Positions 1-47,572 of a stretch of DNA of 54,485 nucleotides are shown here, in pieces. Within the stretch, counting starts at the first letter, position 1, and the number at the start of each line of letters is the position of its first letter. Under the pieces are notes generated by a model. The model made no database searches, was not told where the DNA came from, and worked only from the letters and a program-made list of their open reading frames with translations. Origin of the DNA: Patescibacteria group bacterium (GTDB lineage Bacteria > Patescibacteriota > Minisyncoccia > Phycocordibacterales > Phycocordibacteraceae); NCBI GenBank assembly GCA_019752595.1, contig JAIELV010000001.1:1-54485 (forward strand), in the 5' to 3' direction. Position numbers and translations under genes: made by a program.

Positions 1-3000
1 GGAGGACTTGCGATTGATGCACTGGGGAATGTCTATAATGCAGCGACTTCGACGTTGGCAACTATTGCAGGGACTCTTAATCTCGCCACACAAGTGACAG
101 GGGATTTGCTGTTCTCGAATCTCACGCAAATCGCCCCAAATTCAATTCTCGGAAACATTTCAGGCAGTACTGGAGATGTGGGAGCGATTGCCACATCTTC
201 ACTCTTTACTGGTTCAAACGGACAAACACTTGCCAGAGTGAACGGTACCTGGATGGGAGTTGCAACTACGACGGCAGGCACTGGGCTGACGTATGACGGA
301 ACAAGCTTCAACGCAAACTGTGTTGCAATTACAGGTTCCGCATCGTTGTGCGACGGAGATGATGCGACAGGAGGGGGCGGAAGCTGGCCGTTTGTAACTT
401 CCGTAACAAACTTTGGAACTTCAACACAATCTACATCAACACCGCTGTGGCTCAGAGGAAACAAGTACTCACTATTCGCTTCCTCGACTTCCGTTTTTGA
501 GTTTGCCTCAACAACGCAATTTACTTCAACAGGTATCACGTACCTCGCAACGGGAGGAGGGATGGTTGGTATCGCAACCAGCACTCCGCTTTCCTCTGCC
601 AAACTCGATCTCTTCGGTAATTTTACCTTCTCTGGTGCAGACAGGTATCTGAATTTCGGTGCAACCTCTACCGATTCGGTCGGTGTGAACGGGTATGGCT
701 TCCGTGATAATGCAGGCACATTGGAGTTCAAGAACTCCGGAGGCACCTGGCAGGGAGTGACGACGGCAACATCCGGGCCGAGTTTTAGCGTGCATCGGAA
801 TAATGTTTCTACCACGAGCGTTGATGGAGCAATAGTTGGTATAGATTGGACCACAGAAAGTTTTGACACGAACAATAATTTTGACCTTTCTTCTGATCGC
901 TTTACTCCTACCGTACCTGGCAAATATGTGGTCAGTGCAAGTGTTAGATGTAACAACTCGGCCGCTGACACCTGTCAGATTTATATTTATAAGAACGGTT
1001 CAGGGGGTGTGCTTATTGCGAGCCAGACAAGTGAAGTCCCCAACGCAACGCAAGGTGCGAGCGTCTCAACGATTGTTGATATGAACGGTACGACTGATTA
1101 TGTAGATGCGTATGTGCGCGTTATTGGTGACACAAATATATCTGGTGCTATCGGCTTTACGATTTTTTCAGGTGCCATGGTCGCTCCGGTAAATTCAAAC
1201 AACGCCGCCGGGTGGACGAATGACGGTTTCGCTTCCTATCTCCTGGATAATGCGGACAACGTGGGCGTCGGCACTTCTTCGCCGTTTGCAAAATTCGCGA
1301 TACAAGGAAATGCGGGTCAAACGAATCCCGTGTTTGAAATTGCTTCGTCTTCAACAGGAACAAAGTTCATATCGGTTGCAGGTAGTTCAGGGATTGTGAC
1401 AATGACGAACGCTTCAACCACCAACATCACATCAGCATACGCATCAACCACTAGTCAGATAATCTCAGGCTCTCTCACACTCGCCAATCTCTCTGGCTTC
1501 CTCAAAGCAACCGCAGGTGTTGTGGCAACCTCACTCATTGATCTCGCAAACGATGTGACCGGCATCCTTGGTGCTACGAACGGCGGCACGGGATGGGCAA
1601 ACTTGCAGGCAAACACTCTTCTCTTAGGAAACGGTACCAACAGAATCAGTACCACCACTGCAGGTACGAACGGGCAGGTACTTGCGTTGGTATCAGGAGT
1701 ACCGACGTGGGTTGCGACAACAACACTCGCTGATATTTCAGGAACTCTTACTGTAAATAAAGGAGGTACTGGCGCAACCACATTTACAAACAACAGACTC
1801 CTCACAGGAAACGGCACATCCGCACTTGTTGATGAAACAAATCTCACCTTTGACGGTTCTCTTCTTGCGGTGACAGGTAATGCGTCAACGACGCAACTCA
1901 CCACAACTGACTCAACATACTTGGCGACATTGGGAGGAAATGTGGGTATCGGAACAACGAGTCCTTACAAAGCACTTTCTGTTCAAGGAGGGGTTTCTAC
2001 GGATTTAGTTGTTCTCTCTACAACAAATACAAGTGGCGCTTCAGTTCGTTTTGATGGTAACGGTACGTATGACGGCAGAGCGTGGAGAATATCTGCAGGA
2101 GGAAGTGCAAACACGATATTCGGAACCAGCCCCGGAACAAAATTTGGCATCATTGACGCAACAGCAAACGCTTCTCGGTTGACGATAGATTCATCAGGTA
2201 GAACGGGTGTTGGTACTACATCTCCGTTCGCTCGTCTTACTGTGTGGGGCGGTGCATCGGAAATTAATCTTTTGGAGGTTGTAAATTCCGCATCCACAAC
2301 AGCGCTCCGCGTATCGGCTTCGGGTTTTGGTACCACCACACTTTCTGGCCTCGCTGTTTCAGGATCTGCAACCTCGACTTCAAATGTAGGTATCGATTTA
2401 TCAAGTGGGTGTTTTGCGATTAACGGTACCTGTGTCGGTGGCAGTTCATTTTCAAACACCATTGCTAACGGAGGAACGGCAACGACGACGTTTTATAACG
2501 GAGGAGTTGTTTTCTACAACTCTACACTCGGCACACTTTCACAAGCGTCAGCTCAGACAGGTCTTTTTTATAACAACACCACATCACGGCTCGGTATCGG
2601 CACCACAACCCCGAACGCGATGCTCGCCATCAGCACGAGCGGGGGCGAGGGACTGTATTTGGATAACCCAAGCGGACAATTTTCGATTATGCGCTATTTG
2701 AATAATGGCGGTATAAAAGCAAGCACGTATTGGGACAATACAGCAAGCAAGCTTGAAAACGCGATTTCAAGCACAGGAAACTTTACCTGGGTTTCAAATG
2801 GAAACGAATGGATGCGTATCGGCACGACAGGCAACGTCGGCATCGGCACAACGACGCCCTTTGCAAAATTCGATGTATATGCGGCGGACGTGAACGGCAT
2901 ACGAAGCATATCAACCGTTACACTTGGCTCTACGTCTGGGGGAGGATTTTTTGCACAAAACAATGCATCTTCTACTGCGGCAGATCAGCGGCTCGGGGGT

Positions 3001-5013
3001 CTCTTTTTCGGAACAAACATTGACGGAACAAGTTATTCATCTGCAGGAATCACTGGTTTCTCGAGCGAAGCGTGGAGTGCGACTGCACGCGGGGCACACT
3101 TGCGTTTTGAGACAGCGGGATTAGGTGTTAGTTCTCGTACGGAACGTATGCGAATAACTGCTGACGGAAATGTCGGTATTGGGACAAGCACTCCCGCATT
3201 CAAATTGCAGATAGCATCCGATTATGTGAACACTGGGGATATCAGCTCAGGTCAGTTTTCGGTAACGGGCGCAACCGACCCGACAAAACGAATCGCTCTC
3301 GGGTATGACACGACAAATAATTATGGATTTTTGAAGGCAGGTCGTGTGGGGATAGGTTGGGATAACATTTCCATTGCTCCGTTTGGGGGCAATGTGGGCG
3401 TCGGCACCACGTCGCCATGGGGACTTCTTTCAATAAATCCAAACGCGCTCGGCGCCAGCGTGCCTTCATTTGTTGTCGGTTCTTCAACTGCAACCAGCCT
3501 TATCGTGACAAACGCGGGTAACGTTGGCATCGGGCAGTTAGCACCAACGCATCGTCTGAACGTTCGTTCTCAGGCTTCAGCAACCAATGTGTTTGTGGTG
3601 AGCGGTGCAACAAGCAACGGTACGTTGGCACGCATCTACGATGATTCAGGCGTGGGCATTCTTTCCGTGTATGCCACCAGTGAAAACGAAACAATCCGTC
3701 TTTATGGCAACGGCAGTAGTTACTTAAACGGCGGCAATGTCGGTATTGGAACGACCTCTCCCGCCTACAAGCTCGATATTGCAGGAAATGTTGGGATGAG
3801 TGCGGGCGCGGGAAGTTCCGCGGCTATTTATCTCCAGGCGCGCAATATCGGGAATATGACACAGTTCGGAACCGAGGCATCTACAGGGAACTCTATTTTG
3901 TCTGGTGGCACCGCGTATGCGTCGATCTTTGGTTCTAACGGCGCATTTCCAGTGCAGTTTGGCACTTCAAATACTGTGCGCTTGACCATCGATTCTGCAG
4001 GTAATGTAGGTATAGGCACTTCAACTCCAGGATTTTTACTCTCTACGTCGGGTGGGAAGGTCGCCTTTAAATCAACCGCGTCTACTACTGCAGCGTTTGC
4101 TGTTGAAAATAACTACGGAAGAAACGTGTTTCAAGTCGATACGCGCGACACTGCGGCTGCTCTCTTTTCTGTATCTACGTCAACAGGGGGTACGTACTTT
4201 ACGATTGCGGCGGCGGGTAACACGGGGGTTGGAACCACAACGCCGTTTAAAGTATTTTCGGTTTCAGGCTCGGGCGCTTGGGACGGTCTCACGGCACTTT
4301 CAGGTACCTCTGGTACGCTGTGTTGGAACACTACAACAAGGGAAATTTTGTCCTCAACAGCTACCTCGTGTAACACCTCTTCGGCGCGTTTTAAAAACAG
4401 TATTGAATCTTTGGGTTCCAGTTCGGGTCTTGCAGAAATTATGAATCTGCGGCCAGTCTCGTTCAAATATAATAACGACGAAAATCCGGATACTACGTAC
4501 ACAGGTTTTATCGCTGAAGAAATCTTTGCTGTTGACCCACGCCTAGTAGTATTTGATCAGGATGGGCTTCCGTACAGCGTCAGATACGAAAACTTAACTG
4601 CTGTATTGGCTCTTGGCATACAGGAGTTGAATCTGAACATCAATACAATCGCGTCTTCCACCGCAAGCACAACTCCCGCTTCACTGAATTTTGCTGAATC
4701 GTTCTTCTCGAATGTGTTTACAAAAATAACGACGTGGCTTGCGGATGCAACAAACGGAATAGGGAAGTTGTTTGCAAACGAAATTCATACGAAACAGATT
4801 TGCGTCGCAAAATCTGACGGTACGGAATTCTGTGCGGATGGCGACACATTGGCGGCGCTTGCTGCATCTGCTGGGGGCCCTCCAACTCCGCCACCGACCC
4901 CTCCGCCAACACCTGAACCCACTCCCGAGCCAGAGCCTGAACCCGAACCAACTCCAGAGCCCGAACCGACGCCAGAATCTGCGCCCGAAGAAACGCCTTC
5001 GCCTACACCCTAA
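1..5013 (+). CDS. Giant tail-fibre-like surface protein, 5'-partial. Contains a C1q/TNF-like module, GNVGIGTTSP-type repeats, a Peptidase_S74 intramolecular-chaperone domain and a Pro/Thr/Glu tail.
   Basis: Frame 1 is open from nt 1; the track M at 55 is a TTG, so the gene very likely continues upstream. The C-terminal region SSARFKNSIESL...LRPVSFKYN...GFIAEEIFAVDP...YENLTAVLALGIQELN matches the endosialidase/tail-fibre chaperone (S74) pattern. Residues around SFSVHRNN...GKYVVSASV...IYKNGS...FSGAMV resemble a C1q/TNF jelly-roll. Confidence 0.85.
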   Translation, partial: GGLAIDALGNVYNAATSTLATIAGTLNLATQVTGDLLFSNLTQIAPNSILGNISGSTGDVGAIATSSLFTGSNGQTLARVNGTWMGVATTTAGTGLTYDGTSFNANCVAITGSASLCDGDDATGGGGSWPFVTSVTNFGTSTQSTSTPLWLRGNKYSLFASSTSVFEFASTTQFTSTGITYLATGGGMVGIATSTPLSSAKLDLFGNFTFSGADRYLNFGATSTDSVGVNGYGFRDNAGTLEFKNSGGTWQGVTTATSGPSFSVHRNNVSTTSVDGAIVGIDWTTESFDTNNNFDLSSDRFTPTVPGKYVVSASVRCNNSAADTCQIYIYKNGSGGVLIASQTSEVPNATQGASVSTIVDMNGTTDYVDAYVRVIGDTNISGAIGFTIFSGAMVAPVNSNNAAGWTNDGFASYLLDNADNVGVGTSSPFAKFAIQGNAGQTNPVFEIASSSTGTKFISVAGSSGIVTMTNASTTNITSAYASTTSQIISGSLTLANLSGFLKATAGVVATSLIDLANDVTGILGATNGGTGWANLQANTLLLGNGTNRISTTTAGTNGQVLALVSGVPTWVATTTLADISGTLTVNKGGTGATTFTNNRLLTGNGTSALVDETNLTFDGSLLAVTGNASTTQLTTTDSTYLATLGGNVGIGTTSPYKALSVQGGVSTDLVVLSTTNTSGASVRFDGNGTYDGRAWRISAGGSANTIFGTSPGTKFGIIDATANASRLTIDSSGRTGVGTTSPFARLTVWGGASEINLLEVVNSASTTALRVSASGFGTTTLSGLAVSGSATSTSNVGIDLSSGCFAINGTCVGGSSFSNTIANGGTATTTFYNGGVVFYNSTLGTLSQASAQTGLFYNNTTSRLGIGTTTPNAMLAISTSGGEGLYLDNPSGQFSIMRYLNNGGIKASTYWDNTASKLENAISSTGNFTWVSNGNEWMRIGTTGNVGIGTTTPFAKFDVYAADVNGIRSISTVTLGSTSGGGFFAQNNASSTAADQRLGGLFFGTNIDGTSYSSAGITGFSSEAWSATARGAHLRFETAGLGVSSRTERMRITADGNVGIGTSTPAFKLQIASDYVNTGDISSGQFSVTGATDPTKRIALGYDTTNNYGFLKAGRVGIGWDNISIAPFGGNVGVGTTSPWGLLSINPNALGASVPSFVVGSSTATSLIVTNAGNVGIGQLAPTHRLNVRSQASATNVFVVSGATSNGTLARIYDDSGVGILSVYATSENETIRLYGNGSSYLNGGNVGIGTTSPAYKLDIAGNVGMSAGAGSSAAIYLQARNIGNMTQFGTEASTGNSILSGGTAYASIFGSNGAFPVQFGTSNTVRLTIDSAGNVGIGTSTPGFLLSTSGGKVAFKSTASTTAAFAVENNYGRNVFQVDTRDTAAALFSVSTSTGGTYFTIAAAGNTGVGTTTPFKVFSVSGSGAWDGLTALSGTSGTLCWNTTTREILSSTATSCNTSSARFKNSIESLGSSSGLAEIMNLRPVSFKYNNDENPDTTYTGFIAEEIFAVDPRLVVFDQDGLPYSVRYENLTAVLALGIQELNLNINTIASSTASTTPASLNFAESFFSNVFTKITTWLADATNGIGKLFANEIHTKQICVAKSDGTEFCADGDTLAALAASAGGPPTPPPTPPPTPEPTPEPEPEPEPTPEPEPTPESAPEETPSPTP
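1255..4250 (+). repeat. Dispersed in-frame repeats encoding G-N-V-G-I/V-G-T-T-S/T-P followed by an amphipathic strand. I read at least 11 copies.
   Basis: Copies seen near nt 1258, 1939, 2200, 2587, 2829, 3166, 3389, 3518, 3733, 4001 and 4216, for example ggcaatgtcggtattggaacgacctctccc. Confidence 0.8.
4876..5010 (+). repeat. Low-complexity Pro/Thr/Glu tail (PPTPPPTPPPTPEPTPEPEPEPEPTPEPEPTPE...)
   Basis: Read directly from the translation and from the cc[a/g]-ac[a/c]-cc / gaa-cc[a/c/g] repeats in the DNA. Confidence 0.9.
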
Positions 5014-5016
5014 TCT

Positions 5017-5841
5017 ATGAAAAAAATCCTAGCGCTCGTTTTACTTTTTTCCTTGTTCCCGCAATCAGTATTCGCCGCCACAGTTGTCTTTCTTACTTCA
5101 GGGACTTCGTATACGATTCCATCCGATTGGACAACCACAAACACTATTGAATGTATTGGTTCAGGGGGAAATGGTCGATCAGGGAGTGTGAGTCAGGCGC
5201 GCGGTGGCGGTGGCGGGGGCGCATATTCTCAGGTTTCTGGTTTAGATTTGTCAGGCTCAATTTCGTACGTAATTGGAGCGGGAGGAAATTTTTCTACGGG
5301 AACATATTTTAACGGCGTCTCAAGTACTTCAGCTTCAATAAGCTGTTCTAGCGGAAGGACCGCTACTCAATTAAATGGTGGAGCAGGTGGCACAACAGCG
5401 AATTCAATTGGAACAATTAAATTTGCAGGTGGGAATGGAGAAGTAGGGATTATCGCGTGTCCTGAAGTGGGCGGTGGCGGTGGCGGAGCAGGCGGGCCTG
5501 GGGGCGCAGGAGAAGCAGGTGTAGGAAGTACAGGAGGCAGAGGCGGTGGCGGTTTTGGGGGTGGTTTTGATGGAGGTAACGGAGCAGAGTGGAATTACGG
5601 CTTTGTAGCAGGTTCTGGGGGTGGGGGTTTCGGGAGTTCTGGTGGCGGTGCCACAGCTGGTGATGGCGGTCTCTATGGCGGTGGCGGTGGCGGAGGAGGG
5701 ACTAATTGCGTGGAGGGCGATCTTTCTGGAGTTGGTACGCAAGGAATTATTGTTATATCGTACTGGCCAACGCTTTCTTCGATGATAAATATTTTAGGAG
5801 GCAGAACCTTGATACAAGGTGGTGCGGTGCGTATTTATTAA
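5017..5841 (+). CDS. Secreted glycine-rich domain protein
   Basis: Signal peptide MKKILALVLLFSLFPQSVFA. The pattern FLTSGTSYTIPSDW..IECIGSGGNG...GGGGGGAYS plus long G-runs resembles glycine-rich domains found beside phage or tail-fibre-like proteins. It starts 3 nt after the stop of the giant gene. Confidence 0.7.
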   Translation: MKKILALVLLFSLFPQSVFAATVVFLTSGTSYTIPSDWTTTNTIECIGSGGNGRSGSVSQARGGGGGGAYSQVSGLDLSGSISYVIGAGGNFSTGTYFNGVSSTSASISCSSGRTATQLNGGAGGTTANSIGTIKFAGGNGEVGIIACPEVGGGGGGAGGPGGAGEAGVGSTGGRGGGGFGGGFDGGNGAEWNYGFVAGSGGGGFGSSGGGATAGDGGLYGGGGGGGGTNCVEGDLSGVGTQGIIVISYWPTLSSMINILGGRTLIQGGAVRIY

Positions 5842-6535: not shown

Positions 6536-7543
6536 ATGAAAACAATCAACGTCGCAATAAACGGCTTCGGCAGAATCGGCCGAGCCTTTTTTCGGGAGGC
6601 GCACAAAAACCCGAACATCAATATTGTCGCCATTAACGACCTCGGTCCTGTGGACAATCTTGCGTATCTTTTGAAGTACGATTCCGTATACCGTACCGCA
6701 CCTTTTACTGTTGAAGCAAAAGACGGCGCTCTCGTGGTGGACGGCAAAGCGATAAAATTTCTTTCTGAAAAAGAACCAACAGCGCTTCCGTGGAAGGACT
6801 TGGGTGTTGATGTCGTGATTGAATCAACGGGCGTTTTTAACGATTTTGAAAAAGCAAAAGTCCATATCACTGCTGGCGCGAAGCGCGTAGTGATTTCCGC
6901 TCCCGCGAAAGGCGAGGGTGCCACAGTACTGATGGGGCTCAATGAAGACATGCTAAAAACGTGTGAAGTTTCTTCAAACGCATCGTGCACCACGAATTCC
7001 GCCTCTCCCTTGATTACGATTTTAGACGCAACAGTCGGTATTGACTCTGCGCTTTTGAACACCGTACATGCGTACACAGCGTCGCAATTAATTGTTGACG
7101 GTATTTCAAAGAAAGATTGGCGCGGAGGCAGAGCAGGCGCTGCAAACATCATTCCGTCTTCAACAGGTGCTGCGGTAGCAGTGACGAAAGCGTACAAACC
7201 ACTTGAGGGAAAATTTGACGGTATTTCTTTGCGCGTGCCCGTTCCTGTAGGTTCGTGTGCGGATATTACGTTTATCGCGAAGCGCGATACGTCGGCAGAA
7301 GAAGTGAACGACATTTTGAGAAAAGCTGCGAGCGAGGATAAATGGAAAGGACTTTTCAGAGCAAGTGATGAAGAGCTCGTTTCAAGCGACATTATCGGTG
7401 ACACGCACGCGGCGATTGCGGATTTGAAAATGACCCGCGTCGCGAATAAACGACTGGTAAAAGTGCTTTCTTGGTACGACAACGAATACGGCTACACGGG
7501 CTCACTCATTAAACACGTACTGGAGGTTGCGAAGTACTTGTAG
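6536..7543 (+). CDS. gap: Glyceraldehyde-3-phosphate dehydrogenase, type I
   Basis: NGFGRIGR Rossmann start, catalytic SNASCTTN, C-terminal WYDNEYGY. 335 aa is the expected length. Confidence 0.97.
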   Translation: MKTINVAINGFGRIGRAFFREAHKNPNINIVAINDLGPVDNLAYLLKYDSVYRTAPFTVEAKDGALVVDGKAIKFLSEKEPTALPWKDLGVDVVIESTGVFNDFEKAKVHITAGAKRVVISAPAKGEGATVLMGLNEDMLKTCEVSSNASCTTNSASPLITILDATVGIDSALLNTVHAYTASQLIVDGISKKDWRGGRAGAANIIPSSTGAAVAVTKAYKPLEGKFDGISLRVPVPVGSCADITFIAKRDTSAEEVNDILRKAASEDKWKGLFRASDEELVSSDIIGDTHAAIADLKMTRVANKRLVKVLSWYDNEYGYTGSLIKHVLEVAKYL

Positions 7544-46295: not shown

Positions 46296-47390
46296 TTATG
46301 GAAGTGAAACAATCGTGTACTTGATGATGTTGTTCTCATCATTCTTTTCCTGAATGCTTCCTGTAGGATCGACATTCACGGTGAACTGAGCATTTGAGTT
46401 GATGTCAAAGCTGTCGAAGCCGATAGTGAATTCAATACGGTCTTTTGGACGCAATTCCTGCTGCATCGGAGACGAGTAGATGTACGAGGGAAGAGTAGGA
46501 AGAACCGCGTTAAAGGCGAACTGATTTGAGGTCTTGGTACCCTGGTTTTCGACAGAGAAACGAACTGCAATTCTCTGTGTGCGTGATGGTGTTGAGGATG
46601 CAGTGAATGCGCCTGTTGATTTATCAACGACACCGACTTCGATAATTTTCGGCACGAGGTCGACATAGCCGTTCGGGTTTGAGACAGGTGCACCTGAGCC
46701 AGGAATAGTGATTGTGGTGTTTGTCGGAGCTCCTGGTGTCGTAGGAGTTGTTGGCGTAGAAGGTGTGGTCGGTGTCGTAGGAGTGGTTGGGGTCGTCGGC
46801 GTCGTTGGCGTAGAAGGAGTGGTTGGTGTGCCAACGGTTGGACTTGAGCCAAGAGCAGGATTCGTCAACGTCAACGTTGCCTTTCCAGTCACTGTTGGCT
46901 GGTTCGCGCCGTTCGGAGTGAAGTCTATGTACACCGTGACGTCTGCAAAGCGGTTCGTGTCAGAAAATCCTGTGAGCGTGATTGAGTTGTTGCTGTGTAC
47001 AAAGTTAAACGGCACGTTGCAGAAAATAGTATCCTGCGCATTTGCCGAATTGAGGGCTGTCATGCGTACACCGTCTGCACAATCAAAGCGGAAGCGGTAC
47101 GAACCTTCAACTGTTTTCTTATCGTGCGCCCATGAGAGAACAAATGCTTTGTTGTGTTCGATATTCAAAGAGGGAACAGACAGTGCGATCGCTTCATCTG
47201 CAGGAACGAAAATAGAGGTAAGCGAAACGATTGCTGATGCAAGGTTAGAGAGTGCTCCTGGTACCGCGCGGGCTACCTGAACTGAACCCCACATACCAAT
47301 CCCGAGGATTGCGATAAAACCGATAATAGCGGCAACGCGCTGAACGCCTCCCGACATGAGGCCGCGCTTAGAATTCGGTGTGTTTTCCAT
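46296..47390 (-). CDS. Membrane-anchored surface protein with a Pro-Thr linker and a C-terminal CARDB-like domain
   Basis: TM helix VAAIIGFIAILGIGMW. PT repeat. The CARDB pattern runs DLVPKI...FSVENQGTKTS...VNVDPTGSIQEKNDENN. I prefer Met13 of the track ORF (about 47390): it follows a minus-strand TTGACA-N17-TACTGT by 7 nt. The track's TTG at 47426 lies within that -35 box. Confidence 0.7.
   Translation of the reverse strand: MENTPNSKRGLMSGGVQRVAAIIGFIAILGIGMWGSVQVARAVPGALSNLASAIVSLTSIFVPADEAIALSVPSLNIEHNKAFVLSWAHDKKTVEGSYRFRFDCADGVRMTALNSANAQDTIFCNVPFNFVHSNNSITLTGFSDTNRFADVTVYIDFTPNGANQPTVTGKATLTLTNPALGSSPTVGTPTTPSTPTTPTTPTTPTTPTTPSTPTTPTTPGAPTNTTITIPGSGAPVSNPNGYVDLVPKIIEVGVVDKSTGAFTASSTPSRTQRIAVRFSVENQGTKTSNQFAFNAVLPTLPSYIYSSPMQQELRPKDRIEFTIGFDSFDINSNAQFTVNVDPTGSIQEKNDENNIIKYTIVSLP
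46729..46833 (-). repeat. Tandem Pro-Thr coding repeat (PTTPSTPTTPTTPTTPTTPTTPSTPTTPTTP)
   Basis: Reiterated ggtgtcgtaggagtKgttgg-type units on the plus strand. Confidence 0.85.
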
Positions 47391-47572
47391 GTGTCGGACA
47401 GTATCATGGATATAAGGACTTGTCAAGCATGCGCTTTACTCCTGCCTTTTTCAGGGTGTAATCCAAATCCTTGACAAAGTGTCTTCTATGATGTAAGCTA
47501 TTTAATAGAAACTGTCTGGAATAAATCCACCTGTGGAGCTACTCCTCAGTTTCGGACAGTTAGTTCATCACT

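Follow-up and report, generated by a model that had tools for sequence, protein, structure and literature searches.

How the ultra-small Patescibacteria (the candidate phyla radiation, CPR) find and hold their host cells is largely obscure beyond type IV pili, and the locus described here raises the question of whether a giant gene resembling that of a phage tail fibre belongs to the machinery of the cell that carries it or is the cargo of a phage. The window analysed, 54,485 nucleotides (nt) of a Patescibacteria group bacterium (GenBank assembly GCA_019752595.1), is the initial 54 kb of contig JAIELV010000001.1 (hereafter C1) of a 903-kb genome that consists of three contigs and is rated 100% complete. 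Its first open reading frame (ORF), whose 5' end is open at the contig end, encodes 1,670 amino acids (aa). In our reading, to which we give a probability of roughly 0.7, this stretch would form the distal part of a chromosomally encoded, membrane-anchored trimeric adhesion fibre that exceeds 2,000 residues and is matured by self-cleavage at a Peptidase_S74 domain. Such a fibre likely serves to attach the cell to a host or partner cell or to recognise one.

The S74 intramolecular chaperone, which a preliminary description of this DNA had placed from nt 4378 onwards, is recovered there by the Pfam hidden Markov model (HMM) PF13884 (E 2.3e-9, 37.8 bits against a cut-off of 22; aa 1460-1516, nt 4378-4548), and a scan of the whole genome scores it at 44.4 bits as the sole S74 domain. 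The domain opens with an SxxxxK pair (S1460-S-A-R-F-K1465; SSARFK begins at nt 4378). In an alignment of 36 C-terminal regions (A1) Ser1460, Lys1465, Gly1502 and Ala1505 (the latter two in the GFIAEE motif) are invariant, as are Cys1601 and Cys1611 further downstream, while C1457 and N1585 are at least 90% conserved. The AlphaFold2 (AF2) model of the C-terminal region reaches a predicted local distance difference test (pLDDT) value of 80, with block means of 87-97 in the S74 core, which closes with a long helix at aa 1529-1551. Foldseek searches with this model returned as top match the intramolecular chaperone auto-processing (ICA) domain of MyRF (7dc3; E 3.3e-4, probability 1.00, target-normalised template modelling score (TMt) 0.52-0.57), followed by chains of the endoNF chaperone (3gw6), and 227 viral S74 models match at E<=1e-3. 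At the sequence level the structural matches came from the alignment profile and not from the single sequence: the profile matched the phage tail fibre 8jov (E 2.9e-14), S16 gp37 (6f45), MyRF (7dc3) and GA-1 gp12 (3gud), a single-sequence search of the PDB with the C-terminus gave Pro-rich low-complexity matches only, and NCBIfam yielded nothing but low-complexity noise. Judged from its sequence, the S74 domain looks catalytically competent. The part from Ser1460 to the end of the protein measures 211 aa, in agreement with the fragment of about 210 aa proposed earlier, and after the predicted cleavage a conserved loop between C1441 and C1457 would form the mature fibre's tip.

The S74 domain of the window protein is not at the extreme C-terminus, and the chain runs on for about 120 residues past the ends of 8jov and 6f45 (8jov was aligned up to residue 435 of 439, and this fibre stops four residues after the first helix). 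The preliminary description was right in this respect, yet the arrangement is not peculiar to the gene: a terminal position is a habit of the phage members and not a defining feature, and MyRF breaks it too. In the AF2 model the residues after S74 form a helix (aa 1559-1581), a Cys-closed beta-hairpin (aa 1599-1613) and a short helix (aa 1614-1623), corresponding to H159-181, E199-203, E209-213 and H214-223 in the numbering of the model, with block pLDDT values of 75-92. The Cys pair noticed earlier is C1601/C1611 in CVAKSDGTEFC (nt 4801-4833), and the Pro/Thr/Glu tail reported with it is present as well, is 46 aa long and contains an 18-nt tandem repeat at 4924-4976.

A search with aa 1400-1670 yielded 92 homologous proteins of about 930-2,700 aa, several of them encoded on contigs of 200-640 kb; NCBI labels several of the proteins as 'tail fiber domain-containing protein', and those that bear a source name are nearly all assigned to Patescibacteria or its candidate phyla (Zambryskibacteria, Taylorbacteria, Paceibacterota, Minisyncoccia, 'Patescibacteria group'). 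A search with the single C-terminal protein found no relative in the genome-contig collection. The Cys hairpin module is found in 72 of the 93 proteins (window protein included), where the tail that comes after it always has 15 aa or more (median 89 aa). Pro content is 15% or more in 48 of these 72 tails, and other members have an Ig-like DUF5011 domain (PF16403) at this place. The helix/Cys-hairpin module also occurs without S74, both in three homologues (P0075, P0084, P0085) and at the end of a paralogue in the same genome (C3-end, L006:6017-10000), in which the module (…FAQEVHTDTLCVSDASGETCITKSQLDAL…) is followed by PF16403. Among 50,697 phage genomes no record aligned past query residue 148 of 270, leaving the post-S74 module uncovered. 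As it is the norm of the family and also occurs without S74, the module is separable and lineage-specific, and not a part of the chaperone.

These observations bear on an alternative in which S74 would act within the chain, for processing or as a hinge, and the C-terminal fragment would stay as the true distal tip or as a second product, like the two halves of MyRF. The invariance of C1601 and C1611 (a conservation equal to that of the catalytic pair), the constant presence of a tail, the Ig-like, adhesion-type domains that relatives place after the module and the top structural rank of MyRF all speak for it, as does the C3-end paralogue, in which the module cannot be cleaved off because S74 is lacking. 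Against this, the S74 fragment is set free and has no later function in all phage and Bdellovibrio cases studied (PMC10769870), and the short members P0049, P0051 and P0067 stop about 35 aa past the first helix, which makes the extension dispensable for folding. On balance we consider this alternative unlikely, though worth keeping in mind. A bolder version is more doubtful still: S74 self-cleavage might act as a maturation switch that yields a membrane-anchored fibre with a cytoplasmic helix-turn-helix (HTH) foot and a disulphide-stapled, acidic-tailed (or Ig-like-tipped) trimeric fragment, held at the tip or shed toward the host. If this were true, a fibre with an HTH foot would be a single-polypeptide link between contact with the host and events inside the ultra-small cell.

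Upstream of S74 the protein consists mostly of a repetitive shaft, in which full motifs occur at aa 189, 421, 648, 735, 864, 946, 1058, 1132, 1175, 1247, 1336 and 1408 and a degenerate copy at 1116. Eleven full GxVGIGTxxP copies lie C-terminal to the knob described below, and the earlier count of at least 11 GNVGIGTTSP-type repeats in this position was therefore accurate. The DNA copies are only 61-83% alike, indicating that the shaft repeats are old protein repeats. Neither did these intragenic direct repeats, nor any others in the window, qualify as template/variable repeats of the diversity-generating-retroelement type. A bAvd-like gene (PF22296/PF05635), an accessory of such retroelements, was observed at L008:7563-7943, 3.6 kb downstream of the fibre homologue P0005, whereas the window showed no element of this kind. 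The ten Cys residues of the window protein form five local pairs (107/117, 317/325, 804/811, 1441/1457, 1601/1611), a pattern that points to an extracytoplasmic location. The closest bacterial counterparts of such a shaft come from Bdellovibrio bacteriovorus, which has 21 'mosaic adhesive trimeric' (MAT) fibres, surface-displayed trimers of about 1,000 aa that act in prey handling (Caulton et al. 2024, PMC10769870). The V-G-x-x-x-x-P-x-x-x-L capping-loop motif of the MAT fibres is present in 12 full copies in the shaft, and with a profile that takes in the S74 region and the last repeat, this repeat aligns to the MAT fibre structures 8ojn (E 0.008), 8ol4 (E 0.01) and 8ond (bd2133; E 0.18).

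The shaft is interrupted by a module that had been likened to a C1q/TNF jelly-roll head. The Pfam model C1q (PF00386) remains below its cut-off (16.6 against 23.7 bits, E 0.0096), covering profile positions 2-124 of 127 at aa 262-391. However, the AF2 model built from a 37-sequence alignment (pLDDT 84.8, predicted template modelling score (pTM) 0.78) is a jelly roll that Foldseek superposes on C1QL1 (4qq2; TMt 0.85, root-mean-square deviation 2.3 Å) and on the C1q head (1pk6; TMt 0.78). TNF-family ligands and the spike knob of phage phi812 (9eul) are also matched, with probability 1.00 and TM values up to 0.86, and 289 PDB chains in all match at E<=1e-3. The C1q/TNF assignment is, according to these models, right by fold and not by HMM. 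The term 'head', on the other hand, did not hold, since the domain occupies aa 261-396 of at least 1,670 and is followed by more than 1,270 residues, and is thus an internal in-line knob and not a C-terminal head. An exhaustive search with aa 234-411 retrieved 6,807 cluster representatives at E<=1e-3; upon re-scoring of the top 150, up to 8 copies of the knob domain were found per protein, and 24 of 304 domains were C-terminal. The knob family (window 700-1233, proteins P0094-P0243) is very large and apparently unnamed, has F, P, G, Y, K, N and D as invariants and displays the motif FDTNNNF…RFTPTVxGKY…KNG…DMNGTTDY…FSG.

Given these likenesses, the gene could be an ordinary phage or prophage tail fibre, carried by an integrated or misbinned phage, with the S74 fragment as a disposable chaperone. 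PHROG tail-fibre families do match the protein (1e-19 to 3e-12), its S74 part is 35-41% identical to fibres of cyanophages, roseophages and vibriophages, and many viral models match its structure. The neighbourhood tells otherwise. As stated in the preliminary description, no phage structural, integrase or lysis genes adjoin the fibre gene: downstream lie the genes of a Gly-rich secreted protein and a membrane protein, gap (starting at 6536, 1.5 kb away), rpiB, rpe and tkt. The transketolase is split, which together with the size of the genome, the source names of the fibre homologues and the best gap relative (a Candidatus Liptonbacteria MAG at 58% identity, a loose placement) indicates Patescibacteria of the Parcubacteria type. 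The candidate regions that could precede the fibre gene contain glycosyltransferases, UDP-glucose dehydrogenase and asparagine synthase (end of C1) or SecA, MurB and Wzy (start of contig C2), with GatB/Obg on contig C3. No capsid, portal, terminase, tail-tube, integrase or lysis genes occur at the start of the window or in either candidate upstream region. Homologues, likewise, have SecA, DnaG and sigma-70 as neighbours and lie on long chromosomal contigs. The sole neighbour with a phage name is a small PF04020 gene ('Phage_holin_4_2'; C2:1242-1577, minus strand, L003) just upstream of the N-terminal piece on C2; it lies between secA and the giant gene and occurs at the same place in a metagenome contig (L007, 69% identity). 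It adjoins secA in both genomes and probably encodes an ordinary membrane protein. In the first 12 kb of the window GC content stays at 0.44-0.51 throughout, three paralogues occur in a 0.9-Mb genome, their N-termini (HTH plus membrane helix, or signal peptide) are not features of phage fibres and the post-S74 module has no counterpart in the phage records. Phage or prophage cargo is therefore a very improbable explanation, and the fibre gene is chromosomal and cellular. That it was 'domesticated', in the direction from phage to cell, and that its product is an 'adhesin', are inferences taken over from the preliminary description.

The missing 5' end has to be sought at the other contig ends. 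All six contig ends fall within three paralogous giant fibre genes, with N-terminal pieces at the end of C1 (699 aa, with a signal-peptide-like start), the start of C2 (L003) and the start of C3 (L005), and C-terminal pieces in the window, at the end of C2 (2,154 aa) and at the end of C3 (1,328 aa). The pieces at the C2 and C3 starts share the order HTH_17 domain (28.4 and 24.6 bits, respectively), single hydrophobic helix and Pro/Val/Thr-rich linker. The first 77 nt of the window recur in frame in the paralogous gene at the other end of C1, 731 nt inside that end; likewise, the first 77 nt of C2 equal those of C3, and the last 77 nt of C3 equal C2:45125-45201. These terminal identities show a k=77 assembly graph that broke only at giant-gene repeats, and the identity at the window start proves a shared repeat, not a join. 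In terms of genome curation, giant fibre genes break the assembly of an otherwise near-complete genome.

Since C2 bears the only secA of the genome, plus murB, and C3 bears gatB and obg, all three contigs belong to one chromosome. If the giant genes, which are all on one strand, are placed on a single circle, the start of C1 must follow C2 or C3, and since both of these end in pieces with HTH_17 and a membrane helix, the window gene should begin in this way. Synteny favours C2 as the upstream contig. L007 encodes a homologue of 2,439 aa (P0003) with HTH_17, S74 and an Ig-like domain; the cupin, Wzy, MurB, SecA and PF04020 genes upstream of it share 58-80% identity with their counterparts at the start of C2, and 3 nt past its stop begins a Gly-rich gene with 66% identity to window 5017-5841. 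Taken together, contig logic and synteny point to an HTH_17 domain and a single membrane helix as the missing N-terminus, and the genome circle is likely C1, reverse-complemented C3, reverse-complemented C2 and back to C1. An N-terminal HTH is likewise present in 20 of the 92 homologues. It is unusual for a surface fibre to have a cytoplasmic HTH as its foot; in RodZ, a domain of this kind has a role that does not involve DNA. The motif TATC(C/G)GATA was not enriched upstream of the giant gene of C2 (2 one-mismatch matches against 1.75 expected in 12 kb of C2).

Self-circularisation of C1 through the 77-nt identity was considered and rejected, as the 77-mer is not at the tip of the contig and the join would strand C2 and C3 with their secA, murB, gatB and obg genes. 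Such a join belongs to a further alternative, in which the C-terminus would be cell-proximal, the Pro-rich acidic tail would span or bind the wall and secretion would make use of the signal-peptide-type N-terminus at the C1 end. The 77-nt identity does tie the window start to that gene, and P0005, P0009 and P0011 pair a signal-peptide-like N-terminus with the same S74, Cys hairpin and Pro-rich tail; Pro-rich wall-spanning regions are moreover known in Gram-positive adhesins. Nevertheless, the C-terminus has no LPXTG motif, membrane helix or known wall-binding domain, and S74 cleavage would detach the fibre from a C-terminal anchor. Together with the loss of C2 and C3 from the chromosome, this leaves the inverted orientation with little to recommend it.

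The membrane-anchored, self-cleaving fibre can be envisaged as follows. The chain would be anchored with its N-terminus inside by HTH_17 and one membrane helix, and a Pro/Val/Thr-rich linker would then span the wall. Once exported, it would form a trimeric shaft in which the GxVGIGTxxP motifs would be loops, as in the Bdellovibrio MAT fibres and MyRF, and the knob, in line with the shaft, would be a probable ligand- or glycan-binding site. S74 would nucleate trimerisation and cut itself at Ser1460 by means of the Ser-Lys pair, exposing a disulphide-looped tip and freeing the 211-aa fragment. This fragment may be more than a chaperone, and probably remains bound to the fibre or has a function of its own. 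That it is conserved, that it also occurs without S74 and that relatives have Ig-like domains behind it all speak against its being merely thrown away.

Several points weigh against this reading. The positional orthologue P0003 is not colinear with the local pieces but a rearranged mosaic of them (38% identity in the N-terminal piece, 86% over one 108-aa block), which suggests in turn that giant genes evolve quickly within a conserved slot. The 5' junction is unassembled, and a signal-peptide-type N-terminus reached via the 77-nt identity may apply if contigs are missing; anchoring is deduced from contig topology and synteny. The S74 module is patchy, occurring in 11 of 41 genomes (counting that of the window) and, even inside the genus, in 7 of 24 other genomes. 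The match to the MAT fibre structures is weak (E 0.008-0.18), and trimer formation, cleavage and adhesion are themselves inferred.

The coordinates of the predicted features are collected in Table 1. Among the neighbours, the Gly-rich gene directly after the fibre gene is present in a single copy and has the same arrangement after P0003, which makes it a conserved companion of this one fibre slot. Elsewhere in the window, a 9-nt periodic repeat in six overlapping 53-nt copies (46723-46829, within the region of ORF 46296-47426) may encode a Gly-x-x tripeptide repeat.

Table 1. Predicted features of the giant fibre gene, its downstream neighbour and its paralogues. Coordinates refer to the window unless a contig is given.
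Feature	Coordinates	Strand	Basis or remarks
3' part of giant fibre gene	1..5013	+	1,670 codons + stop; 5' end lost at contig end
77-nt identity node	1..77	+	Equals C1:830626-830702 within paralogous giant gene at other C1 end; k=77 assembly-graph repeat node
Fibre shaft	565..4260	+	12 full + 1 degenerate GxVGIGTxxPxxxL motifs
C1q/TNF-like jelly-roll knob, in line (aa 261-396)	781..1188	+	AF2 model + Foldseek; Pfam C1q sub-threshold
Conserved Cys loop C1441...C1457	4321..4371	+	Stops three residues ahead of predicted cleavage site
S74 intramolecular chaperone/autoprotease domain (aa 1460-1551)	4378..4653	+	Ser1460/Lys1465 pair, GFIAEE motif, first long helix
Lineage-specific post-S74 module (aa 1559-1624)	4675..4872	+	Amphipathic helix, NGI motif, beta-hairpin closed by C1601/C1611, short helix
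Acidic Pro/Thr/Glu low-complexity tail (46 aa, aa 1625-1670, 50% Pro)	4873..5010	+	Composition
Secreted Gly-rich protein (PF21722)	5017..5841	+	Pfam 25.6 bits; begins 3 nt after fibre stop; single copy in genome
Giant-gene pieces at contig ends	C1:829387-831433; C2:3-983; C2:38974-45435; C3:3-938; C3:22603-26586	C2/C3 pieces -	

The fibre family described here is large and little studied and may be a means of attachment of these symbionts. Nothing relevant on S74 or tail-fibre proteins in Patescibacteria/CPR was found in the open-access literature, and the supplementary lists of MAT relatives comprise predators and symbionts and no Patescibacteria (PMC10769870). To the known bacterial phage-fibre-like S74 adhesins the family brings lineage-specific and experimentally tractable additions, namely an in-line C1q-like knob, a post-S74 module and a probable foot of HTH and membrane helix.

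The knob shares with C1q/TNF heads (4qq2, 1pk6) and with phage knobs (phi812 9eul; short fibre of cyanophage A-1(L), 8ke9) a ten-strand jelly roll (TM 0.75-0.86) and a conserved F/G/Y core. It differs in its low identity (15-22%) and sub-threshold Pfam score, in not being C-terminal, in lacking a collagen stalk before it and in reaching up to 8 copies in relatives. Phage fibres with an intramolecular chaperone (endoNF/K1F 3gw6, GA-1 gp12 3gud, S16 gp37 6f45, 8jov) have the S74 fold, the Ser-Lys pair and the position after the shaft in common with the window protein; however, they end soon after the first chaperone helix, whereas the window protein is several-fold longer, probably membrane-anchored and devoid of virion gene context. 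MyRF, the top structural match, also has an internal S74/ICA domain whose cleavage leaves two persisting parts. It is a eukaryotic protein with the order DNA-binding domain, ICA, membrane helix, in which cytoplasmic cleavage frees a DNA-binding trimer. In the window fibre, by contrast, the probable order is HTH, membrane helix, ectodomain of about 2,000 aa and S74, so that cleavage could not free the HTH. A MyRF-type membrane-bound transcription factor was rejected for this reason, the membrane helix separating HTH from S74.

The nearest parallel is offered by the S74 subgroup of the Bdellovibrio MAT fibres (e.g. Bd3182; 8ojn, 8ol4, 8ond). Both are chromosomal, phage-fibre-like and displayed, or in the present case probably displayed, at the surface of a bacterium living on other cells; both have several paralogues per genome, a Gly/Pro loop motif in the shaft, an SxxxxK S74 domain toward the end and TNF/C1q-like domains in their repertoire. 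MAT fibres have a conserved N-domain of about 130 aa after a signal peptide, a capping-loop motif in common with MyRF, and tips formed by self-cleaving S74 (SDxxxK consensus) or other domains, TNF/C1q-like ones included (PMC10769870). The paralogues of the present genome also differ in their ends, with S74 in the window, an Ig-like domain at the C3 end and another kind of end at the C2 end. The window protein would nevertheless exceed the MAT fibres two- to threefold in length (over 2,000 against about 1,000 aa), its TNF/C1q-like domain is in line and not at the tip, its S74 is followed by the helix/Cys-hairpin module and an acidic Pro-rich tail, and its N-terminus is probably HTH_17 plus a membrane helix in place of the signal peptide and N-domain. 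As a giant, fast-changing and phage-fibre-like family, these proteins are a concrete candidate for host recognition in Patescibacteria, parallel to the prey-recognition fibres of Bdellovibrio.

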